Below are positions 5,710 to 20,852 of a stretch of DNA of 57,381 nucleotides, piece by piece. Source of the stretch: an uncultured Gemmatimonas sp. (GTDB taxonomy: Bacteria; Gemmatimonadota; Gemmatimonadetes; Gemmatimonadales; Gemmatimonadaceae); contig CAYUMN010000001.1 of NCBI GenBank assembly GCA_964445835.1, forward strand, positions 1-57,381, written 5' to 3'. Positions within the stretch are counted from its first letter, which is position 1. Each line of letters starts with the position of its first letter. Both the position numbers and the translations under genes were made by a program. The notes under the pieces are model-generated. The model was not told the origin of the DNA. It saw only the letters and a program-made list of their open reading frames with translations, and did no database searches.

Positions 5710-7002
5710 TCAGCTCCCGAAGTGTACCACCGCTTGGCGCAACGCGTCGTGATGCGCGGCTTGCTCCGAGAGGGAAATGCCGCGCGCGATGCCGTCCCAT
5801 GCTTGCCGGACACTTGCCGCGCCAGCCGCGGGGCCATCGGGATGCCCAAAGACGCCGCGCCCAGGAACAAAGCCGAAGTCCACCGTGCCGAGGCGCTGAT
5901 AGATGCCCTCGAGCGTCCCGGCCCAATCGCTACCGCCGGGGACGGGAAGGGCGGGCGCGATCGTGCCCATGGGCTCTAGACATGCGCGCACGTTCTCGAG
6001 CACCTCCTGCTCGGACATCATCATACGCGCACCAAAGCCCGGCATGATCACGGCATCGCACCCGGCGAGTCGTTGCAGGCGCGTCATCACGCGCGAGTGC
6101 ACGCCGTAGTGCGGCAAGCGACTGAACGCGGCGATGAACGGAAAGTGCGCGAAGATCGGCACGCGCGCGTGTGCACGGAGGAGTCGCACGCCGCTGAGTC
6201 CCACGGGGAGGGCATTGATCAGGACCGCGTTCGCTCCCGCGTTCACCGCGATATCGTGCAGCGCAGTCAGTCGCGCCACCTCATCCGTCACATTCGCCAT
6301 GTACATCTTGGGCACACCGGTGGCACGCTCGGCGCGCACGCGCGCGGCGCCGAGCAATGCCGCGCGTTCCGCGAGAGGCGACCACGAGGTGTCGCCGAGC
6401 ATCTCATCGTCCTTGGCGATATCAAGACCGCCGAGCCAGGCCTGCTCACCGATCGCCGAGAAGGGCTCCGGTGCGAGTCCGATGTTGGGCTTGATGACGC
6501 CGAGGAAGATCGGGCGGTCGTAGGCGTTGAGCAGTCGCCGAATGCCCGCCACACCGAACTGTGGTCCGTCGAATTCCGCGAGAAACGATGCGGGGAAGCG
6601 GATGTCCTCGAGCCGAATGATCGGCACCCCAGGCACGAAGAAGACGCCTTCGCCCATCACGGCGGACATCAGGTTCGGAAGCCGCGGGCCGAAGTTCGCG
6701 TGTGGATGCGCGATGGTGACGTGCACGCGATGCACAGGGCCAAGCGGCGGCGCGGGGGGGTCGTACGAGAAGCCGGAGAGTGGCACGGCGTCGAAGGCGA
6801 CGACCTTGGCGGCGAACTGCGGGCGAAAGTCCTCGTCCACACCGACGCGCTTCCACTGTGCCGTGGACTGCTCGCTGCAGAGGTGCGCCGCCGCGAGCCG
6901 CGGATCGCCAGCGCACTCGAACGTGAAGTCGAGCTCGAGGTGCGCTTCGGGATCGAGCACCTCGCGCGTGGTGAAGAAGTGGGGGATGTCGTCGGCGTGC
7001 AT
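5710..7002 (-). CDS. RuBisCO-like protein (form IV, IV-Photo type)
   Basis: CSEQSTAQWKRVGVDEDFR, VIKPNIG, GGLDIAKDDEML, ANVTDEV, AHFPF, PVPGGSD, FVPGRGVFGHP. From memory these closely match the Chlorobaculum tepidum RLP. It lacks the KPKxG second Lys and HR pair of true RuBisCO. Confidence 0.93.
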   Translation of the reverse strand: MHADDIPHFFTTREVLDPEAHLELDFTFECAGDPRLAAAHLCSEQSTAQWKRVGVDEDFRPQFAAKVVAFDAVPLSGFSYDPPAPPLGPVHRVHVTIAHPHANFGPRLPNLMSAVMGEGVFFVPGVPIIRLEDIRFPASFLAEFDGPQFGVAGIRRLLNAYDRPIFLGVIKPNIGLAPEPFSAIGEQAWLGGLDIAKDDEMLGDTSWSPLAERAALLGAARVRAERATGVPKMYMANVTDEVARLTALHDIAVNAGANAVLINALPVGLSGVRLLRAHARVPIFAHFPFIAAFSRLPHYGVHSRVMTRLQRLAGCDAVIMPGFGARMMMSEQEVLENVRACLEPMGTIAPALPVPGGSDWAGTLEGIYQRLGTVDFGFVPGRGVFGHPDGPAAGAASVRQAWDGIARGISLSEQAAHHDALRQAVVHFGS

Positions 7003-10420: not shown

Positions 10421-10579
10421 GCGCTACTGCCGCGACCATCCCGCGAAAGGACTAGGCGTGACGTAGTTCCTAAATCACTCGTGCGAGCAGTGCCTCCGAA
10501 AAGCATTCCGCGGCATCCTCCTCTTGGGGCTATCGGCGTCGCCGAAGTCGCCCCGTCGCTCACTGGGAGAACCATTTAC

Positions 10580-11404
10580 ATGTCACCGCTCACGAATCGC
10601 TCGCGCACGTCGCTCGTTCTTGCCACCCTCGTCCTCGGCCTTGTCGCCGTGGGCTGCTCCGACAGCACCGGTCCCGACCCCGTCTCCCCCACCTTGCCTG
10701 GTGCTGGTCCTGGGACCGGTGGCGCCGGCGGCAATGGCCCCACGCCGGTATTGCTTGGCGCGGCGGGTGACTTCGTCATCCTCGCCAAGACCGGCATCTC
10801 GACCGTCCCGATCTCGGCTATCACCGGAAACATCGGGATCAGCCCGGCCGCGGCGTCCTTCCTCACCGGATTCTCACTGACGCTCGGCAGCGGCGCGGCC
10901 TTCGCGACCTCGACGCAGGTGACGGGGAACGTGTTCGCGCCGGGCTATGCCGTCCCGACGCCGACGAATCTGACCACGGCGGTCGGCGCGATGCAGACGG
11001 CGTACACCGATGCCGCCGGCCGCACGTTGCCGGATCATGTGGAACTCGCGACGGGCAATCTGGGCGGGCTCACGCTTCCCCCGGGCCTGTACAAGTGGTC
11101 CAACACCGTCACGATTCCGGCCAACGTCACGCTCGAGGGTGGCGCGACCGACACCTGGATTTTCCAGATCGCTGGAGGCCTGACTCAGTCGTCGGGGAAG
11201 CGCGTGATCCTGAGCGGCGGTGCGTTGGCGGAGAATGTGGTCTGGCAAGTGGCCGGCGTGGTCACGATCGGCACGACGGCGCACATGGAAGGTCGCCTCT
11301 TCTCGCAGACGGCGATTTCAATGGGTACCGGCGCAAGGGTCAACGGACGCCTCTATGCGCAGACGGCCGTCACGATGGCCAGCGCGACAGTCGTGGTGAA
11401 ATAG
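10580..11404 (+). CDS. Ice-binding protein, DUF3494 family, lipoprotein
   Basis: GGAGA RBS; lipobox AVGC; Gly/Pro linker; FVILAKTGIST, ITGNIGISP, MQTAYTDAAGR, TLPPGLYKW, WIFQI, NVVWQVAG, NGRLYAQTAVT. Confidence 0.93.
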   Translation: MSPLTNRSRTSLVLATLVLGLVAVGCSDSTGPDPVSPTLPGAGPGTGGAGGNGPTPVLLGAAGDFVILAKTGISTVPISAITGNIGISPAAASFLTGFSLTLGSGAAFATSTQVTGNVFAPGYAVPTPTNLTTAVGAMQTAYTDAAGRTLPDHVELATGNLGGLTLPPGLYKWSNTVTIPANVTLEGGATDTWIFQIAGGLTQSSGKRVILSGGALAENVVWQVAGVVTIGTTAHMEGRLFSQTAISMGTGARVNGRLYAQTAVTMASATVVVK

Positions 11405-11609
11405 CCGGACGATGTTCGGGAAGGCCGCCCTCGTTGCTTGGGGGCGTCCTCACTCCCGTTCAGGAACACAAGGCTGTTGAGGAGTGCGACGGTGGCAAAT
11501 AACGTCACAAATCGTCATGCTCGCCCTTGCGCCTCAATCGTCGGACGCGGACATTCCCTGTCTGCGCACTCAGCTATAGAAATGGGCGCGCGCACGACTC
11601 GCACCCATC

Positions 11610-13715
11610 ATGTCAGACGACCTTCCCGAATCCCCAATTCCGGAGCCTTCATCGGCCGAGGATGTGCCCAGTACGCCGCGCGGATCCCGCTCCGTGGACC
11701 CGGTCATGGTCAAGCTCGCCGAAGCCACGGGGAGCGAGTATCGAGTTGAACGCGAACTCGGTCGGGGTGGAATGGCGACGGTGTATCTCGCGCACGACCT
11801 GCAGCTCGAGCGCAAGGTCGCCATCAAGGTCATGGGCGCGGATCTGTTCGCCGCCGGCGATATCCTCGTCGATCGGTTCCTGCGGGAGGCCCGGACGGGG
11901 GCGCGGCTCAATCACCCGCACATCATCCCCGTCTACGCGATCCGCGAGTCGAAGGAGCTGATCTACTTCGTGATGAAGTTCATCGACGGGAAGCCGCTCG
12001 ATGACGTGATCAGCAAGTACGGCCCCCTCCCGATCGCGCTCGTCGCGCGCGTGATGGCGCAGGTCGCCGACGCGCTGGCGTACGCGCACCGCAACGGCAT
12101 CGTGCACCGGGACATCAAGCCCGGCAACATCATGCTGGACAAAGAGGGGTGGGTGGTCCTCACCGACCTCGGCATCGCGAAGGTCCAAGAAGCCTCGATG
12201 CTCACGGCCACGGGTTCGGCGATCGGGACGCCGACCTACATGAGCCCCGAGCAGAGCAGCGGATCGAAGGAGACGACCGGCGCGTCGGACCAGTACTCAC
12301 TCGGCTGCGTCGCCTTCGAGATGCTCACGGGGCGTCCGCCCTTCCAGTCGGACTCGATGATCGGCCTGATCTTCCAGCATCACGCCGATCCGCCGCCGCC
12401 GTTGCACACGCTGCGCTCGGATGTGCCGGGGGACATTGCCGCGGCCGTGATGAAGATGCTCGCCAAAGGTCCGGAGGATCGGTACGCGAGTATGGAAGAG
12501 TGCGCGCAGTTCTTCCGCGATCGCTCGATGGGGGACGAGGAGGAGTTCCGACTCCTGCTCCGCGCCTTCGCCACAGGATCGGGCACGGAGGAGGCGGCGG
12601 GGCGAGTCAACACGCCACGGACGCCGATGCCGACCAAGAACCCCGCAGTTGGAACGCCGCGTCCGCCGAATCGGCCGAGCCGCCGCGAGGTCGCGGTCTC
12701 GACGACGGGGATGGTGCCGGTGGCGCGTGAGTTCACGACCGGGAACACTCCGGTCGTCGGCATGGCGACCGTAGCGGGAGGTCCGACATCGGATGCGGCC
12801 GCCGCGGCGAAGGCCGCGTGGCCGCGCACGCTGATTCGTCCCCCCGAGCAACAGAAGATCACCGCCCGGAGTTTCCGCGCCCCCGGCATCCTCACGATGC
12901 TGTTCGTCGCGGCACTCGTGTGGTTCCTGTTCTTCCCGCAGCTCGGGGATCTCGAGACAACGGTCCCGCAGAGCACCGCACTGATGCTGATGCGACAGAC
13001 CGAGGCCGAGGCCGCGGTGCGCCGTGGGTCGGCGCCCGGGGCCGAGGGAAGTTGCGAGGGAGTGCGCAACGATCTCCCGAACTGTCGGAAGCAGACGCCA
13101 GTCTCGCTCGACAGCATCGCGCCGGCGATGGTCGACGCGGTAAGGTTCGCGACCGACTCGCTCTTCAACGCGCGTCAGGGCGCCGATTGGATCGCGATGC
13201 GTCGGGCCGCGGGCTACCCGCGCGATGCCTTTGAGTGGGGGAACAGCGTCGATCGGTCGGATTTCTTTTCGGTGATGCCCACGCTGCTCAACCACATGGA
13301 CGTCGTGGGGCAGTCAGGTTCGTTGACGCAACGCGTGGTGCAGACGATCTGGTATCCGGCGGACAACGGCCTCTTCCGCAAGGCGCGTGAGATTCGTCTG
13401 GCGAACCGGTTGGCGGGAACGCTGACGAAGGATCGGATTCTTGAGCTCTACCTGAACGTCGCGGAGTTCGGCCCTGGGCTGTACGGTGTTGAGGCCGCAT
13501 CGCAGTCGTATTTCGGCATTCCGGCGAGCAAGCTGAGCAAGGCGCAGGCTGCGACGCTCGCCGCCACGCTGGCCACGCCGCGGACCTCGACGCCTGCGCA
13601 GGAGCCCGAGGCGATGACGCGGCGGCAGCGGCTGATCCTCCGCCGACTGAATGGCGAAGCGGTCAGTATCCCCGTCGCGTACGTCGCCACGGATTCGGCG
13701 CCGCGTGCGCCCTAA
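11610..13715 (+). CDS. Hanks-type Ser/Thr kinase + TM helix + degenerate GT51 (MtgA-like) transglycosylase domain
   Basis: Kinase: GRGGMATV, VAIKV, HRDIKPGN, DLG, YMSPEQ, SDQYSLG. TM: ILTMLFVAALVWFLFF. GT51: RKARE, KDRILELYLNVAEFG..YGVEAASQSYFG, with motif 1 altered to TDSLFNARQG. Confidence 0.9.
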   Translation: MSDDLPESPIPEPSSAEDVPSTPRGSRSVDPVMVKLAEATGSEYRVERELGRGGMATVYLAHDLQLERKVAIKVMGADLFAAGDILVDRFLREARTGARLNHPHIIPVYAIRESKELIYFVMKFIDGKPLDDVISKYGPLPIALVARVMAQVADALAYAHRNGIVHRDIKPGNIMLDKEGWVVLTDLGIAKVQEASMLTATGSAIGTPTYMSPEQSSGSKETTGASDQYSLGCVAFEMLTGRPPFQSDSMIGLIFQHHADPPPPLHTLRSDVPGDIAAAVMKMLAKGPEDRYASMEECAQFFRDRSMGDEEEFRLLLRAFATGSGTEEAAGRVNTPRTPMPTKNPAVGTPRPPNRPSRREVAVSTTGMVPVAREFTTGNTPVVGMATVAGGPTSDAAAAAKAAWPRTLIRPPEQQKITARSFRAPGILTMLFVAALVWFLFFPQLGDLETTVPQSTALMLMRQTEAEAAVRRGSAPGAEGSCEGVRNDLPNCRKQTPVSLDSIAPAMVDAVRFATDSLFNARQGADWIAMRRAAGYPRDAFEWGNSVDRSDFFSVMPTLLNHMDVVGQSGSLTQRVVQTIWYPADNGLFRKAREIRLANRLAGTLTKDRILELYLNVAEFGPGLYGVEAASQSYFGIPASKLSKAQAATLAATLATPRTSTPAQEPEAMTRRQRLILRRLNGEAVSIPVAYVATDSAPRAP

Positions 13716-14685
13716 CGGCACTCCGCGCCGGCTCCTGCTTGCGGCGCTCTGCCTCTTGGGCGTCGCCGGGTGTGCGGCGCGTCCGAAGCTCTGGCTCTTC
13801 ACGGCACCGTGGGATGTGCGGAGCGATTCCGCGCTCGCCTCTGGGGTCGCGCCGAGGGCGACGATCATCTCGGGCTGGATCAGCCTAGACTCTGCGGGTG
13901 GCCTGCCGGTGACGCTCTTCGAGGATCCGCCACGCGACCCAGATGAGCGTCGCGGCGATCGCTTCGCCCTGATCACGAGCTATCGCGTCGACAAGTTCCA
14001 CCCGGAAGCGGTCCGCGCGCTGGCCCGCGATGTGGCGGCCCGCCAGCGCGCCGCCGATGCCGTGGAGACGCTGGTGCGCGCCGGTACCTACGCGGGTGTG
14101 GTGCTGGATCTTGAGGCACTCGAGATCAGCGACACCACGGCGCTCGCCGTCGTCACGGCGTCGTTGAGCGCCGCGGCACGACGTGGTGGCGCACGCGAAG
14201 TCGCGATCGCGGTCCCTGCGCTCGATACGGTGGCGTACGCGGCGCGGGTGCTGCTGCCGCATGTCGATCGCCTGTTGGTGATGCTCTACGATCAGCATTG
14301 GACCGGCTCCGAACCCGGCCCCGTGGCGGCGCGCGCGTGGGCGCGTGAGGCGCTGCAGCGCTGGGTCGCGTCGGCGGGAGCCGACCGCGTGGTCGCGGCG
14401 CTGCCGGTGTACGGCTACCACTGGCGCACTGGCGTCGCGACCGATGTGGTGGGGTGGAGCGATGTGCAACGTTTGGCTCGCGAGTCCGGGGCACGCGCCG
14501 CGCGCGACACGGCCTCGGGCTCCCTGCGCCTGCAGATGGGCGAGCAGGGAGAGGCCTGGCTCGCGGACGGCCCGCTCTTGGCCCACATGGCAGAGGACGC
14601 GCGCGCGCTCGGCGTGCGCACCGTGGCGCTCTGGCGCCTCGGCCTCGAGGATCCGGCGGTCTGGACCGCCTTGGGAGTGCGATGA
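13705..14685 (+). CDS. GH18-like glycoside hydrolase lipoprotein
   Basis: Lipobox VAGC; YAGVVLDLE (DxE), VMLYDQHW..SEPGPVA, ALPVYGYHW, ALWRLGLEDP. GTG start overlaps the kinase stop by 11 nt. Confidence 0.85.
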   Translation: MRPNGTPRRLLLAALCLLGVAGCAARPKLWLFTAPWDVRSDSALASGVAPRATIISGWISLDSAGGLPVTLFEDPPRDPDERRGDRFALITSYRVDKFHPEAVRALARDVAARQRAADAVETLVRAGTYAGVVLDLEALEISDTTALAVVTASLSAAARRGGAREVAIAVPALDTVAYAARVLLPHVDRLLVMLYDQHWTGSEPGPVAARAWAREALQRWVASAGADRVVAALPVYGYHWRTGVATDVVGWSDVQRLARESGARAARDTASGSLRLQMGEQGEAWLADGPLLAHMAEDARALGVRTVALWRLGLEDPAVWTALGVR

Positions 14686-16184
14686 CGACCTTTGTGAAAA
14701 GTGGGATCGCGCCGCTCGATCGCCAGATTGGCGGCTTCGTCCCCGGGCGCCCCTACCTGATCTCCGGCAATCCGGGCACCGGGAAGAGCACCGCCTGTCT
14801 CGAGTTCATCGACGCGGGCGTGCAAGCGGGAGAGCGTGGATTGATTCTCACCCATGATGACCCAGGTGACCTGCTCGATTCTGCGGAGTTCCTCGGGATC
14901 GATCTCGGCGAATCGCTGCTCACCGATCGTGTCCGTATCGTCACCTTCCAGCTCGACTTCGTGCGCCGCTTCATGCGCGCCGCCACGCCGATGCAGGCCT
15001 TCGAGGAGCTGCTTCGGCAGATCGGCGACGAGCCGGTGCAGCGGATCAGCATCGATTCCATCGTCCCCTTCCTCGAGGGCGGAGGCGCGGGATCGCAGTC
15101 GATCTTCTCACTCGTGGATTTCCTCGACGCGTTGCAGGCGACCGCCATGATCACCTACCCCGGGGATCTCGCGGGACTCTACGATCAGCGACTGGAACCC
15201 TTGCTGCAGCGGGCGGGCGGCGTCTTTCACCTCGCCGCCTCCGAGCACGGCCGTCGTCGCGGCAACCTGCAGATCCGCAAGCTGCGTCATCAGGCGCGGT
15301 CGGTCGCGCCGGTGCGCTACAAGATCGATCCGGGATTCGGCTACGCGCAGGACGGTGAGCCGAACGTGAAGGAAGACACGATGATCGAGGAGCTGCGCCG
15401 GCGTCTGTTGATCGTGCGGCTGAGTGCGCCGTTTCCGGAAGGGTTGTTGGCGACGCTCCAAACCAGCTTCTCGGTCACGGTGCGTGCCTCGATGCCGCCG
15501 CAGTTCGCTGAGTCGATCCGCGACGGGATGGGCGCGCTCATGTTGTGCGTGCAGCGCGACACGCTCGACGATGCCCTGCAAGGCGTGCGGCAACTCCGCG
15601 CGGCGGACGTCCGGACGCCGGTCGTGCTCGTCACGCCATTTCATCTGCGTGCGAGTGATCGTACGCGTGCCCTGCGTGCCGGTGCGGACGACTTCCTCAG
15701 TGCGAATCTTTCCGAGCCCGAGTTCGTCGAGCGGTTGCGCGGCATTGTGCGGCGCGGGCGCTCGAAGGCGCTGGCGAGCCGCGACCAAGGCATTCCGACC
15801 GTCCTGCAGCCGATGGACGATCAAGGCCGCTATCAGTTGTTCGACGAAGATGGCTTCGCGTCGACGGTGCAGTCGGTCCTGACCTCGGTGCGCGATCCCT
15901 TCTTTGCTGTCCTGCGTGTCTCCTCTCCCGGCGGCGATCAGAACGCGCTCGCGGCATTGATGATTCGCGTGCTCCGCGTGGACAGCGGAGACTTCGCTGG
16001 CGTGTTGGGCGAGGGGGTGACTGCGTATCTCGAGGGGGCGCGACCGGCAGACCTCACGGGGCTACTCGCACGCATCGATAAGCAGTGGGCCGATGAAGGC
16101 GGGCCACCGCTGCACGCCGAGACCATGGGCTTCCCTTCGGACGGCGAGCGTCTCTACGCGCTCCTTGGGCTTTCGGTCGCCTAA
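14682..16184 (+). CDS. KaiC/RecA-like ATPase + pseudo-receiver + degenerate GGDEF-like domain protein
   Basis: SGIAPLDRQIGG, Walker A GNPGTGKS, Walker B ISIDSI, KLR finger; REC-like ALRAGADDFLS without an obvious phospho-Asp; C-terminal LRVDSGDFAG. ATGA overlap with the previous gene. Confidence 0.8.
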   Translation: MTTFVKSGIAPLDRQIGGFVPGRPYLISGNPGTGKSTACLEFIDAGVQAGERGLILTHDDPGDLLDSAEFLGIDLGESLLTDRVRIVTFQLDFVRRFMRAATPMQAFEELLRQIGDEPVQRISIDSIVPFLEGGGAGSQSIFSLVDFLDALQATAMITYPGDLAGLYDQRLEPLLQRAGGVFHLAASEHGRRRGNLQIRKLRHQARSVAPVRYKIDPGFGYAQDGEPNVKEDTMIEELRRRLLIVRLSAPFPEGLLATLQTSFSVTVRASMPPQFAESIRDGMGALMLCVQRDTLDDALQGVRQLRAADVRTPVVLVTPFHLRASDRTRALRAGADDFLSANLSEPEFVERLRGIVRRGRSKALASRDQGIPTVLQPMDDQGRYQLFDEDGFASTVQSVLTSVRDPFFAVLRVSSPGGDQNALAALMIRVLRVDSGDFAGVLGEGVTAYLEGARPADLTGLLARIDKQWADEGGPPLHAETMGFPSDGERLYALLGLSVA

Positions 16185-18512
16185 GTGAGCATCAAGAAGA
16201 CCTCGTCGCTCGGCTATGCGATCAGCTTCGCGGTCGGACTCGGCGGGCTCACGCTCGGGGCTATTGGCGCGTTCTGGCAGGTGACGGGAGGCGAAGTGCG
16301 CCGGAGCGCGGCCGAAGCCGCCGAGGCCACGCAGCCGCGTCCGGTGTGGGTCGATACCACCACGCCATGGCAGCCGTCCCCGGAGGTCGCGCTCCTCGAC
16401 ACGTTGTACATGCTGCGCAACGAGGGACGTCTCGAGGAAGCGCTGGAGGTGGTGGAGCGATGGCTGAGCGATCATCCCGACGATCGCCCGATCCGCCTCG
16501 ACGGCGCGCGGATTGCGTTCGAAGCGAAGGTGCGCGCGCGGGGCGTGTTCCACTACCGACGCTATCTCTTCGGTGGTGAAGACAACGACGTGCTGCGCGA
16601 AGCGGTGAGCCGGATCCTCGCCGAGCTGCCACCGCCGGAGGCGCGAAAGGCATTGACGACGTTGCTCCGTGTGGACGATGCCGCGTACACGGCGAGAATC
16701 GGACTCGCGCGGGCGACGGCGGACGCCAGTGATCCCGTGGGCGCCGATACACTGCTCCGGCCGATTCCACCCTTTGCAGACTCGACGGTCGATCAACTGC
16801 GCCTGCTCGTGCGCCGTGCGCAGAATCCTGATATCTCGACGGCGCAACAGTGGGTGCGCGAGTATCCCGACGAGGGGCTCTACCGGCTCGTGCTCGCGCG
16901 CGCACTGAGTCGGGCGGGGCAACCGAGAGAGGCGTTGCAGCATTACGTGGCAGCGTTCGCGGTGGATACCTCGTTGGCGCTCCGCCACGAGGCGTCCGAT
17001 GTGGCGGTGGCGGGAGAGAATCTTGATATCGCGAGCGGCATCCTGGCAGACATCCTCGCGCAGGAGCCGGAGAATCAGCGGGCGCTGCTTTCGTATGCGC
17101 GCGTGCGCGCGAGGCTCGGCGACAACGCCGGCGCGGTGCGGACTTTTGAGCGCTTGATGGCCCTGAACCCGGATGAGCAGCGCTATCGTGAAGCGCGCGG
17201 TGTGCTGTTCGAGGTGACCGACACGGAGCTGACCATTCCCTTGCTCGCGCGGCTGGTGGCGTTCCGTCCGGATGATGACGTGTTGCGCTTCCGGTACGCG
17301 CAGGATCTCGAGGGTACGCGGCAGTTCGAGAAGGCTGAAGTGCAGTACGACACGCTGCTACTCCGCGTGCCGACGGCGGCGTTGTACCTGACGCGTGCTC
17401 GGCTACGTTCGGCGCGGAATGATCTTGCGGGTGCGATCACCGACGCGGCCGCCTCCGAGCGTTTGGAGCCCTCGGTGGACGCCGCGTTGATTCAGGGTGA
17501 CATCCACCGGTGGCGGCAGGAACGCGAACTGTCACGGGTGGCCTATGCCCGGGCAGCGGCGCTGGCGCCGGATGATGCCCGAGTGACTGAGTCGCGTCGG
17601 TTGTTGGGGGTACAGCGTCGTGAGGCGCTCGCCTTCGAACCCGAGTATGGCAGCGCCATGACGTCCAACGGGATCACGGACTCCGATGGATTCGAGTCGG
17701 TGACGATCCGCGCGCAGGAAGGGTTTGCGCCGCTTGTGGATGAGTCGGTGATCATCGTGGGTGGCGAGGTGCGCCGCACGAGTGGCGCGAACGGCGCGCT
17801 TCTTTCGGGGTTCGGTGGCGATGTCGGTATAGCGCGCCCCGTGGGTGGACTCCAGATGCTTGGCCGCGTTGGCGCGGTGACATTCGGCGGCACTCCGGCG
17901 CTCACTGGCCTCTTCGAGGTGACGAAGCGCTCGCAGCTGCTCTCGCTTCGTGGTGCCCTGACACGGACGCTCGCGTATGAGTCCCTGCGTTCCGGCAACG
18001 TGGTCGCGGCGGACAGCGCCATGGCGGCGACGACGCTCCTCGGCAGTATGAGTGCGCAACTGTCGCCGCGTGTTGATCTCTACGTGCAGGCGGACCACGC
18101 GCGACTTGGTGACGGCAATGCGCGCACCGTGATTGCTGGCGCGGCGCGTCGAAAGGGTTCTGGGCCATTCTCGCTGCTGTACACGGCGAGCGCGGCGACC
18201 TTTATCACTGGGACGGCCCGGTACTTCTCGCCCGATCTGTTCATCACGCAGGGGCTTGGAGTCGATGCGCGTCGCGATCGTCGCGAGGGTTGGTCGGTGG
18301 GTGCGCGCTTGGCGCCATCGTACGCCTGGGTCCGCGAGAGTGCGCCGGGGCGTCCCGCCGGCATGCAAGGGGCGCTGCAAGGGACGCTGTCCGGTGATGC
18401 GACCTGGCGTCGGCCCGGCTGGGAGGTCGGACTCTTCGGTGGCTACGGCCAGGATCGTGCGGGCACGTACCAAGCGGCGTACGGCGGATTGCGTGCGCGG
18501 ATGACCCGATGA
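16185..18512 (+). CDS. TPR-repeat plus C-terminal outer-membrane beta-barrel protein (PgaA/BcsC/PelB-like export protein)
   Basis: N-terminal hydrophobic helix; many TPR-like helix pairs (EALEVVERWLSDHPDD, ILAQEPENQRALLSYARV, YARAAALAPDD); amphipathic beta-strand C-terminal ~280 aa with a YFSP motif. Confidence 0.75.
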   Translation: MSIKKTSSLGYAISFAVGLGGLTLGAIGAFWQVTGGEVRRSAAEAAEATQPRPVWVDTTTPWQPSPEVALLDTLYMLRNEGRLEEALEVVERWLSDHPDDRPIRLDGARIAFEAKVRARGVFHYRRYLFGGEDNDVLREAVSRILAELPPPEARKALTTLLRVDDAAYTARIGLARATADASDPVGADTLLRPIPPFADSTVDQLRLLVRRAQNPDISTAQQWVREYPDEGLYRLVLARALSRAGQPREALQHYVAAFAVDTSLALRHEASDVAVAGENLDIASGILADILAQEPENQRALLSYARVRARLGDNAGAVRTFERLMALNPDEQRYREARGVLFEVTDTELTIPLLARLVAFRPDDDVLRFRYAQDLEGTRQFEKAEVQYDTLLLRVPTAALYLTRARLRSARNDLAGAITDAAASERLEPSVDAALIQGDIHRWRQERELSRVAYARAAALAPDDARVTESRRLLGVQRREALAFEPEYGSAMTSNGITDSDGFESVTIRAQEGFAPLVDESVIIVGGEVRRTSGANGALLSGFGGDVGIARPVGGLQMLGRVGAVTFGGTPALTGLFEVTKRSQLLSLRGALTRTLAYESLRSGNVVAADSAMAATTLLGSMSAQLSPRVDLYVQADHARLGDGNARTVIAGAARRKGSGPFSLLYTASAATFITGTARYFSPDLFITQGLGVDARRDRREGWSVGARLAPSYAWVRESAPGRPAGMQGALQGTLSGDATWRRPGWEVGLFGGYGQDRAGTYQAAYGGLRARMTR

Positions 18513-19837
18513 TCGGCGGCGGAACCCTCAAGGACACGGTGCGCCTCGCGGCCGGCGTCTCCACGCTGATCACGGCCGTGGTCGGTGGCGTCTACCTCGC
18601 GTGGCGCATTCTCGGGCAGACCGAGAGCCTGATGTACATGGGCACCTTCCTGCTCAGCATCATGGTGCTGATGGGATTGGTGGTACGGTATCTCTCCTTC
18701 ATGTGGCTGGGCTATCTGCATCAGGTGGAGCAGACGGCACGGACCGATGCGGTGGGGCAGGTCACCTGGCCTCCGGTGACGATCATTGTGCCGGCGTATA
18801 ATGAGGGCCCGGTGATCGTGCCGGCCATCCGCAGCCTGTTGCAGATCGACTACCCCGCGTACGAGATCCTCGTCGTGGACGATGGGTCGACCGACGACAC
18901 GGCCGAACGGGTCGCGCCGCTGGAAGGACGGCATGGCGACGTCACCGTGCGATTGGTGAGCAAGCTGAATGGCGGAAAGGCGGCCGCGCTCAATACCGGA
19001 ATCGCGCTCGCGCGGCACGACTTTGTGCTGTGTATGGATGGCGACTCCAAGCTCGAGCCGCAGGTCCTCCGCGTCTCGATGCCGCACTTCGCAAAGGACC
19101 ACGTGGCGGCGGTGGCCGGGAACGTGAAGGTGATCAATCGCGATTCGCATCTCGCCCGCTTTCAGGCGCTCGAGTACATCGAAGGGTTGAACATGGCGCG
19201 GCGCGCGCAGGGATTCGTGCGCGTCGTGAACATCATCCCAGGGCCGATCGGGGTCTTCCGGCGGCGGGTGTTGCAGGAGGTCGGCGGCTATGACCGCGAC
19301 ACCTACGCCGAGGACGCGGATCTGACGCTCAAGATCCTTTCGTCCGGCTACCATATCGTGTACGAGGACCGAGCGGTCGCGTGGACCGAGGCCCCCGAAA
19401 CGATCAATGACCTGATCAAGCAGCGGTATCGCTGGACGCGAGGGATCCTCCAGGCGGTGCGGAAGCGCAAGTTGGCGCTGTTGAATCCCGTGTCGCTCTG
19501 GGTCTGGCTCTCCCTCATGATGATGATCTTCGAGGGGATCGTGATGCCGGCGGCGAACATCATCGTGAACGGGATGTTCACGGTGACGGCGCTGGCCACT
19601 GGCGAGTTGGGGGCCTTCATCGTCTGGTGGTTCCTCCTGTTCAACTTGCTCGACCTGATCGCGGCGATGTACTGTGTATCAGGCGAGCAAGAGGAACTCC
19701 GGCTTGTGCCGTACGCGCTCCTGATGCGGTTCTTCTACTTCCCGCTCATCGACGTCACGAAGCTCATGGCTACGGTAGATGAGTTGCAGAACGTCGAGAT
19801 GAACTGGGGCAAACTTCAGCGGCAGGGACGCCTGTGA
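18509..19837 (+). CDS. Processive GT2 synthase, PgaC/IcaA-like
   Basis: PAYNE, DDGSTD, NGGKAAALN, MDGD, AEDADLT, QRYRW; two N-terminal and several C-terminal TM helices; ATGA overlap. Confidence 0.9.
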   Translation: MIGGGTLKDTVRLAAGVSTLITAVVGGVYLAWRILGQTESLMYMGTFLLSIMVLMGLVVRYLSFMWLGYLHQVEQTARTDAVGQVTWPPVTIIVPAYNEGPVIVPAIRSLLQIDYPAYEILVVDDGSTDDTAERVAPLEGRHGDVTVRLVSKLNGGKAAALNTGIALARHDFVLCMDGDSKLEPQVLRVSMPHFAKDHVAAVAGNVKVINRDSHLARFQALEYIEGLNMARRAQGFVRVVNIIPGPIGVFRRRVLQEVGGYDRDTYAEDADLTLKILSSGYHIVYEDRAVAWTEAPETINDLIKQRYRWTRGILQAVRKRKLALLNPVSLWVWLSLMMMIFEGIVMPAANIIVNGMFTVTALATGELGAFIVWWFLLFNLLDLIAAMYCVSGEQEELRLVPYALLMRFFYFPLIDVTKLMATVDELQNVEMNWGKLQRQGRL

Positions 19838-20106
19838 CCGTCGGCACGATTCTCGCGCTCGTCATCCTGATCTCCTTCATGGTGACGTTGATTCTCGCCA
19901 TCGGCAGCTACGCGGCGTACAAGATCCGCGAAACGCGCCGCCCACGCGCGATCTTCACCGCCGATACGGAATTCCAGTTCTTCGAGCGCTATATCCACAC
20001 CCAAGAGGCGCAGGCCTCGCGTGAACGCCGTGTGGCGGAGCGCGAAGCGACGGGCGAGGTGTATGACAACCTCACGACGGAGTACCGTCCGCCGACGTTG
20101 CCGTGA
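19834..20106 (+). CDS. Small single-TM membrane protein (PgaD/IcaD position)
   Basis: GTGA overlap with the GT2 stop; hydrophobic ILALVILISFMVTLILAIGSYAAY followed by a basic stretch. Confidence 0.75.
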   Translation: MTVGTILALVILISFMVTLILAIGSYAAYKIRETRRPRAIFTADTEFQFFERYIHTQEAQASRERRVAEREATGEVYDNLTTEYRPPTLP

Positions 20107-20139
20107 CATCGTTGATCGTCCTCTGACCGGAGCGACACC

Positions 20140-20304
20140 ATGAGCAAGAAGATTCCTGATTTCTCGAGCCACAAGCCGCAGTCCAAGGCGTCCGCGCCCA
20201 AGGGCAGCGACGATGCCGCGCTCAAGTCCGCGATCAAGCCGTCGCCGAAGGTAGCGAGCAAGCCGCAGGCGACCTCGGCGAAGTCGGGACGACGCGGATC
20301 GTAG
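20140..20304 (+). CDS. 54-aa Lys/Ser/Ala/Pro-rich small protein
   Basis: Below the ORF-track cutoff. GGAG RBS, then MSKKIPDFSSHKPQSKASAPKGSDDAALKSAIKPSPKVASKPQATSAKSGRRGS; all Lys codons are AAG and third positions are strongly G/C. Confidence 0.7.
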   Translation: MSKKIPDFSSHKPQSKASAPKGSDDAALKSAIKPSPKVASKPQATSAKSGRRGS

Positions 20305-20307
20305 AGA

Positions 20308-20353
20308 GGGTGCCTGCGGGTGCCTGCGGGGTGCGATCGGTGCGATCGGTGCG
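20308..20353. repeat. Adjacent short tandem duplications (GGGTGCCTGC)x2 and (GGTGCGATC)x2
   Basis: Read directly in the gap between convergent genes. Confidence 0.85.
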
Positions 20354-20378
20354 CGGGTAGCCTAGTGCCCGCGGACGC

Positions 20379-20852
20379 TCAGCCCCACATCGCCCGAATC
20401 GCAGCGGGGGCGGCCGCCAAGAGCCCGAATCGCACGAGACGTCCGCCGAGGCAGATCACCACGAATCGGCCGAATGGGAGGTGGGTCATCCCGGCGGCAA
20501 TCGATGCCAGATGAAACGGCGGAACACTGGTCAACGCGCTCAACGCGAGCACGCCGTTGCCGTACGTTGGACGCGCCGCGAGAAACGCCCTGGTGCGGTC
20601 GACATACCGCTGCGTCCACCTATGCATCACGCGGTCACTCTGGGTGCCGAGCCAGTACCACGGCATCTTGGCGGTGACGTGCGCCAGGGTGAAAACGGCC
20701 CACATGGCGACCGCGAGCTCCGCGGGCAACACCACGCCGATCGCCACTGCGAGCGCTTCGGCCATCCCAATGGGAAGAATACCGGCCCCGAATCCCGCGA
20801 GTGCCGCGGTGCCGAGTGCGAGGACGGGCGAGGAGAGGTCAAAGGTCGGCAC
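20379..20852 (-). CDS. DedA/VTT (YqaA-like) membrane protein
   Basis: Hydrophobic throughout; KMPWYWLG, SVPPFHLASIAAG, GRLVRF. Confidence 0.75.
   Translation of the reverse strand: MPTFDLSSPVLALGTAALAGFGAGILPIGMAEALAVAIGVVLPAELAVAMWAVFTLAHVTAKMPWYWLGTQSDRVMHRWTQRYVDRTRAFLAARPTYGNGVLALSALTSVPPFHLASIAAGMTHLPFGRFVVICLGGRLVRFGLLAAAPAAIRAMWG

Follow-up and report, generated by a model that had tools for sequence, protein, structure and literature searches.

A kinase fused to a probably inactive MtgA-like domain in uncultured Gemmatimonadales, a candidate receptor often linked to a predicted exopolysaccharide operon

The window analysed in this study is a stretch of 57,381 nucleotides from an uncultured Gemmatimonas sp. 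(assembly GCA_964445835.1, contig CAYUMN010000001.1, positions 1 to 57,381 of the forward strand). The gene under study and the operon that it heads comprise the following features, all on the same strand.

11610..13715, + strand: fusion gene encoding a kinase, a transmembrane (TM) helix and a putative pseudo-MtgA (ORF, 701 amino acids)
11739..12497, + strand: Hanks-type Ser/Thr kinase domain, amino acids 44-296 (Pfam Pkinase, E 7e-49)
12498..12878, + strand: Pro/Thr-rich cytoplasmic linker, fast-evolving (sequence)
12879..12938, + strand: single TM helix, amino acids 424-443 (hydrophobicity, model)
12939..13682, + strand: extracytoplasmic GT51/MtgA-fold domain, likely inactive (Pfam, alignment, predicted model)
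13152..13175, + strand: motif 1 remnant, from Thr515 (position of the catalytic Glu) to Arg522 (alignment)
13311..13346, + strand: motif 2 remnant, with S570G, T571S and K578Q fixed and 579 variable (alignment)
13705..14685, + strand: GH18-like probable lipoprotein (the longest ORF runs from 13651; its probable start is the GTG at 13705, which overlaps the stop codon of the kinase gene)
14682..16184, + strand: protein with KaiC/RecA-like ATPase, receiver-like and degenerate GGDEF-like parts in a BcsE-like layout (Pfam, Atlas)
16185..18512, + strand: TPR repeats (Pfam) and a predicted PgaA/BcsC-like outer-membrane barrel
18509..19837, + strand: GT2 synthase (best NCBIfam match PgaC/IcaA)
19834..20106, + strand: small single-TM protein of 90 residues, conserved with the operon (sequence)

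The preliminary description of the gene as an intact kinase followed by one TM helix and an MtgA-like GT51 domain was borne out by Pfam, hydrophobicity and the structural model, which agree. Only one hydrophobic segment of the protein scored above 1.5; it starts at amino acid 424 and is likely to be MtgA's own N-terminal anchor. The kinase motifs (Gly loop, VAIK, HRD, DLG and GTPTYMSPE) were present in 28/28 full-length fusions. DLG, at 12165-12173 in the window, replaces DFG in all of them, and kinases with DLG can be active. The fusion is the sole DLG kinase among the 39 pattern-matched kinases of the window genome (G000, 3.3 Mb), 24 of which carry a predicted TM segment; this genome gave 51 Pkinase matches, 49 of them over the cut-off.

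Just upstream of the kinase, at 10559-11404 (+), lies a gene for an ice-binding-like protein (PF11999, E 3.5e-68); a homologue occurs in locus L041, and its adjacency to the kinase is not conserved in other loci. A protein of the RuBisCO large-chain family (Pfam E 9.5e-47), probably a RuBisCO-like (form IV) protein, is encoded at 5710-7002 (-) next to a UPF0047 gene and an amidohydrolase gene, and was also found in L041.

The outer domain scored 114 bits on the Transgly family (PF00912, cut-off 27). It aligned without gaps over 212 residues with an intact Gemmatimonadales MtgA, P0241 (43% identity), and phmmer alignments with PBP1a of A. aeolicus support the same register. On the MtgA model TIGR02070 the fusion scored 101.7 bits, under the cut-off of 182.65; intact relatives reach 176-182 bits, so that this cut-off is strict for the lineage. 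An AlphaFold2 model built from a 148-row alignment had a pLDDT of 96; since 110 of these rows are intact MtgAs, the model leans towards the MtgA fold and indicates compatibility with the GT51 fold, not proof of it. An earlier run on 8 rows (pLDDT 42) was discarded. In Foldseek searches the model fitted well to GT51 structures only (best E 5.5e-8), and superposition on PBP1b with VIA, a comparison proposed in the preliminary description, gave a Z of 17.9 and an rmsd of 4.0 over 207 residues. Cys482 and Cys492 are conserved in this domain of the fusions and presumably form a disulfide.

A homologue search with residues 425-701 of the window fusion returned 30 close matches (E 6.6e-82 or better), followed by a sharp drop in score. 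Twenty-seven of these contain a full kinase and Transgly domain and three start within the kinase, so that the set of full-length fusions used below, with the window protein, has 28 members; lowest identity among these clusters was 53% over the domain. Seven further short rows are of the fusion type, four with part of the linker and three starting at or after the TM helix. Metagenome loci L055-L058, with 32-39% identity, are not fusion-type and were excluded. All 12 named genome loci carry the labels Gemmatimonas, Gemmatimonadaceae, Gemmatimonadales or Gemmatimonadota. The fusion was present in 11/55 genomes of the genus, and fusion-level scores were reached in 3/401 genomes of the phylum sample and 2/301 of the order sample. 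No independent fusion of a kinase with Transgly was seen among the 120 matches listed of 1,559, nor in 13 long or odd Transgly matches inspected with Pfam; a broader Transgly search, in which 150 of 32,795 matches were listed and a few scanned for architecture, leaves room for kinase-GT51 fusions that may exist outside the Gemmatimonadales.

In a tree with the first 25 of the 110 unfused MtgA rows, the transglycosylase halves grouped together (100/100) with a stem length of 0.74, and the kinase halves also formed one clade (SH-aLRT 99; 17 fusions against 37 paralogues). The fusions share one origin, from an MtgA of the Gemmatimonadales type. Genome G125 carries the fusion together with intact P0241, which has the same Cys loop, and this suggests a duplicated MtgA as the source; P0241 was not resolved as sister of the fusion in a separate tree. 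In unfused MtgAs of related Gemmatimonadales families (L009-L026, P0131-P0240), motifs 1 and 2 are set apart by an insertion of some 20 residues, which the fusion has inherited. Its absence from the window genome's own MtgA hints that the fusion was acquired by transfer.

The narrow distribution is what an assembly chimera or a decaying, strain-specific fusion would also produce. However, an 8,795-base contig from a separate study (run X5) is continuous across 11400-13430 with codon 515 identical. This independent bridge, the 28 full-length clusters with identities as low as 53% and the dN/dS values well below 1 refute such an artefact. Values of dN/dS were obtained by the Nei-Gojobori method for 10 pairs, one of them identical, and are rough, given branches common to several pairs and some high dS values: 0.09-0.31 for the transglycosylase domain in the nine non-identical pairs, 0.03-0.21 for the kinase and 0.10-0.84 for the linker. 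The GT51-fold domain is under purifying selection and is not decaying, a point that the preliminary description had put forward as a test.

That description had also named a conserved loss of the catalytic Glu of motif 1 as a test. In the window fusion this motif reads TDSLFNARQG, with Thr515 (codon ACC, 13152-13154) at the Glu position, a reading confirmed by the gap-free alignment with P0241. Among the 28 full fusions, ten have E at position 515, eight Q, five V, three T and two I, and only 11 of the 188 columns are more variable than this one. Five changes between E and non-E were placed on the tree, at least two of which are forced by the starred branches. Loss of the Glu as a hallmark of the family was consequently rejected. 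Among unfused MtgAs the Glu is present in 109/110, the exception being without any motif 1.

The case for inactivity rests on fixed changes beyond the Glu, since 10/28 fusions keep it. The His of motif 1 occurs in 0/28 fusions, H522R being fixed in 28/28. Motif 2, whose departure from the consensus had been noted before, carries S570G, T571S and K578Q in 28/28, with 575 and 579 variable, and position 586, Arg in 110/110 MtgAs, is never Arg in the fusions. Residues were mapped by offset (578 corresponds to PBP1b Lys274 and to SaMGT Lys140), and the roles of PBP1b and SaMGT residues were drawn from passages of secondary papers, according to which Ala at Lys274 or Arg286 of PBP1b abolishes activity (PMC6286386) and Glu233 is the catalytic centre (PMC4810414). 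The window fusion retains motif 3 RKxxE (R590, K591, E594) and YLN (614-616), as had been noted before; motifs 3-5 (RKxxE, YLN, LAA..P) are retained, with one Pro of motif 5 changed to Ala (655).

These retained motifs, the intact fold and the Glu of 10/28 fusions could be read as signs of a residual, weak peptidoglycan glycosyltransferase, at least in the Glu-bearing members, which the kinase would regulate or whose turnover it would read. Yet every Glu-bearing fusion also has H522R, S570G, T571S and K578Q and lacks R586, position 515 is among the most variable columns and the window copy has Thr there; this explanation is therefore regarded as quite improbable. The fused copy need not polymerise, because the genomes hold other intact genes: motif 1 is intact in three further GT51 genes of the window genome, and an intact MtgA was found in 4/5 other fusion genomes checked, none being seen in G450. 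The protein very probably combines an active kinase with a periplasmic domain devoid of polymerase activity. The idea of a pseudo-enzyme thus stands as to the non-catalytic domain and is replaced as to its basis, which lies in the other fixed changes. Since it fails motifs 1 and 2, the fusion does not belong among the active GT51 enzymes.

The same positions bear on the ligand. In simulations of SaMGT with moenomycin, as reported in part of PMC6053601, the phosphate rests on Lys140 and Arg148 and the sugars on Asn141, Tyr176 and Tyr181. The counterpart of Lys140 is Q in 28/28 fusions, that of Arg148 (586) is Arg in none, and that of Asn141 (579) varies freely, as the third most variable of the 188 columns, which is unlike a tight ligand pocket. 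Tyr176 is kept as Y614; the Tyr181 counterpart is mostly Glu, likewise in the MtgA relatives. A mapping of SaMGT Asn224 to 661 was dropped. With the lipid II/moenomycin phosphate contacts eroded, the moenomycin-like sensor is doubtful, and the earlier proposal of a sensor for lipid II or a moenomycin-like compound is weakened. Two of the three residues of the PBP1b cationic cage are kept (Arg286 as R590 in 27/28, Lys287 as K591 in 28/28), Arg593 is fixed, and no variation is seen at the pocket positions that correspond to Asp101, Asp111, Gln136 and Lys153. Position 518 of motif 1 and the donor-site positions 578, 579 and 586 have changed or vary freely. The cleft has thus been reshaped but not lost. 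It may plausibly bind nascent glycan or lipid-linked chains, though more weakly; the kept cleft residues may also be purely structural.

Eleven columns are fixed across the fusions and differ from MtgA, several of them in the flap, which points to change followed by conservation and fits a new function. That function could be one without glycan, the dead MtgA domain serving as a membrane-embedded module for docking, dimerisation or localisation at sites of wall synthesis or at a secretion machine. The drift of ligand-contact positions 515, 518, 579 and 586, alongside fixed fold residues and new, fixed flap residues (M563, G567, G570, P583, G587), is what such a module would show. Nevertheless, R590, K591, R593 and E594, which line the cleft region, are almost invariant, and the net charge of 12 selected cleft positions remains between +3 and +7; we regard this explanation as rather unlikely. 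A complex prediction of the domain with the GH18 lipoprotein scored 0.00 and, no controls having been folded, counts neither way.

The fusion gene heads the operon in 9/14 distinct loci (L053, which repeats L045, was counted once; in G005 the contig breaks inside the GH18 gene), and 5/14 are without it. In the window the five genes that follow the fusion are tightly coupled to it. D-x-E was found in 119/119 aligned rows of the GH18-like protein. The BcsE-like protein matched KaiC (E 7.5e-22) and REC (E 6e-4) and has an intact Walker A; its GGDEF matches are weak (E 0.16-0.8), and an Atlas feature matched BcsE at 0.90. The PgaA_barrel assignment of the TPR protein is an Atlas feature match only (0.95). 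The GT2 synthase scored 210 bits on PgaC/IcaA (TIGR03937), under the cut-off of 422 and still its best match. The small TM protein may have a BcsF/PgaD-like role. No deacetylase gene was found among the five genes of the window's operon. A promoter and terminator scan of 11300-20500 gave 0 sites, an uninformative result in GC-rich DNA. The best DNA matches to the locus came from microbial mat and biofilm metagenomes.

Within the genus the BcsE-like gene occurs in 7/55 genomes, and all seven lie within the 11 fusion genomes, which are kin and not independent, so that the co-occurrence may represent one gain. Four fusion genomes of one subclade (2.1-2.3 Mb, one of them 98% complete), whose loci fall in the Gln515 subclade, gave no match for the BcsE-like gene or for a close GT2 with the queries used. 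In this operon-less subclade (L047, L048, L049, L050, L054) the fusion and an NlpC/P60 (RipC-like) gene (L048 9858-10424, -) are arranged tail-to-tail, followed by a probable ammonium transporter gene and a P-II gene, both named from sequence.

The BcsE-like regulator was present in 22/401 genomes of the phylum. In 13 stretches around it from fusion-free genomes no fusion was found, and GT2 was present in 10/13; in kinase-free operons 4/5 tested neighbour genes encode CE4 deacetylases. As the operon also occurs without the kinase, and the fusion without the operon, neither needs the other, and the occurrence of regulator/GT2 loci without the fusion marks the kinase and GH18 genes as lineage-specific additions to an older operon. 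In L082 (8092-9813) and L083 (8296-9783) the BcsE-like gene stands behind a gene for a PLP-dependent enzyme, with no GT2 or barrel in the stretch; the small TM gene was seen in L082. The BcsE-like gene may thus have a role outside the polysaccharide operon.

The predicted exopolysaccharide operon, which the preliminary description did not name, is the most likely output of the kinase. Its linkage to the fusion in 9/14 loci would also suit a domain retuned to bind the N-acetylglucosamine polymer that the operon itself would make, on exit from the synthase, with feedback on secretion; the resemblance of the GT51 head to lambda lysozyme, as stated in a passage of PMC4810414, and the loss of phosphate contacts with Tyr614 kept point in the same direction. 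Against this, the same residues are fixed in the subclade without the operon, where purifying selection also persists (transglycosylase dN/dS of 0.09-0.21), and the explanation is considered improbable.

The reading that we prefer is a pseudo-enzyme receptor that likely senses nascent wall glycan and would tune exopolysaccharide output; the whole chain is proposed tentatively, with somewhat less than even confidence. The periplasmic dead copy of MtgA would bind nascent peptidoglycan glycan or a lipid-linked chain, with R590, K591, E594, Y614, N616 and the fixed Arg593 holding the glycan more weakly than the enzyme does, or differently. Binding would promote dimerisation and autophosphorylation of the kinase, as in PASTA kinases, which offer a precedent for activation by wall precursors and for which dimerisation and autophosphorylation have been proposed, according to part of a preprint (bioRxiv 10.1101/2025.11.01.686061). 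The kinase might then phosphorylate cytoplasmic components encoded by the operon, namely the BcsE-like ATPase, the tail of the small TM protein or the synthase. Both polymers, wall and predicted exopolysaccharide, draw on UDP-GlcNAc. By these steps the use of UDP-GlcNAc for polymer export would be coupled to the state of the cell wall. In its strongest form the proposal would make the fusion the first receptor with a peptidoglycan glycosyltransferase fold, in which, in the periplasm of a diderm, lipid-linked wall precursors are read by a dead MtgA that does the work of PASTA repeats with an unrelated fold, and the kinase directly phosphorylates the BcsE-like ATPase so as to gate secretion of a biofilm polymer according to wall synthesis; this form is considered unlikely.

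The PASTA kinases PrkC, PknB and StkP/Stk1 resemble the fusion in having a cytoplasmic kinase that a disordered juxtamembrane linker and a single TM helix connect to an outer domain associated with peptidoglycan. The fusion differs from them in its GT51-fold outer domain and in lacking PASTA repeats (no PASTA match in the protein), and its gene, an accessory one in a diderm host, shows linkage to a predicted exopolysaccharide operon. The phylum of the host is diderm. The PASTA kinase model NF033483 was the best NCBIfam match of the kinase part (308.9 bits against a cut-off of 450); no PASTA kinase was found in the window genome, which is 85% complete and whose sole PASTA match lies on a gene of the class B PBP type. 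With the GT51 enzymes MtgA and SaMGT the fusion shares the fold, the TM anchor and motifs 3-5, and differs in the N-terminal kinase, the variable Glu and the changed His of motif 1 and Ser, Thr, Lys and Asn of motif 2. The beta-lactam receptors BlaR1 and MecR1 use a penicillin-binding fold as outer sensor and a protease as output. They are alike in that a membrane signalling protein has taken over a wall-enzyme fold for its outer sensor, and unlike in that the fusion has a glycosyltransferase fold and a Ser/Thr kinase.

The operon recalls E. coli PgaABCD in its PgaC-like GT2 and its TPR protein with a predicted PgaA-like barrel, and E. coli BcsE/BcsF, as described in part of PMC7439463, in its putative RecA-like/REC*/GGDEF* protein and small TM partner. 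It differs from them in the GH18 lipoprotein, the intact Walker A, the leading kinase and the missing deacetylase gene, and its polymer is a predicted one. No description of a kinase-GT51 fusion was found in a literature search in which subscription journals were thinly covered and supplements not included, and the word 'transglycosylase' has 0 occurrences in the available portion of the review PMC6213207. The fusion would be a receptor Hanks kinase with an apparently undescribed outer domain.

Ser/Thr kinases that sense the wall are known mainly from the PASTA kinases of Gram-positive bacteria. The fusion is known from a narrow range of uncultured genomes, and within these the family constitutes a natural experiment on GT51, in which fold residues are kept and residues of catalysis are lost or drifting. 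If the preferred reading is true, the GT51 pseudo-enzyme would add a new fold to the known wall sensors, in a diderm phylum whose kinome is very large and little studied, and it would link the status of cell-wall precursors to the secretion of exopolysaccharide.
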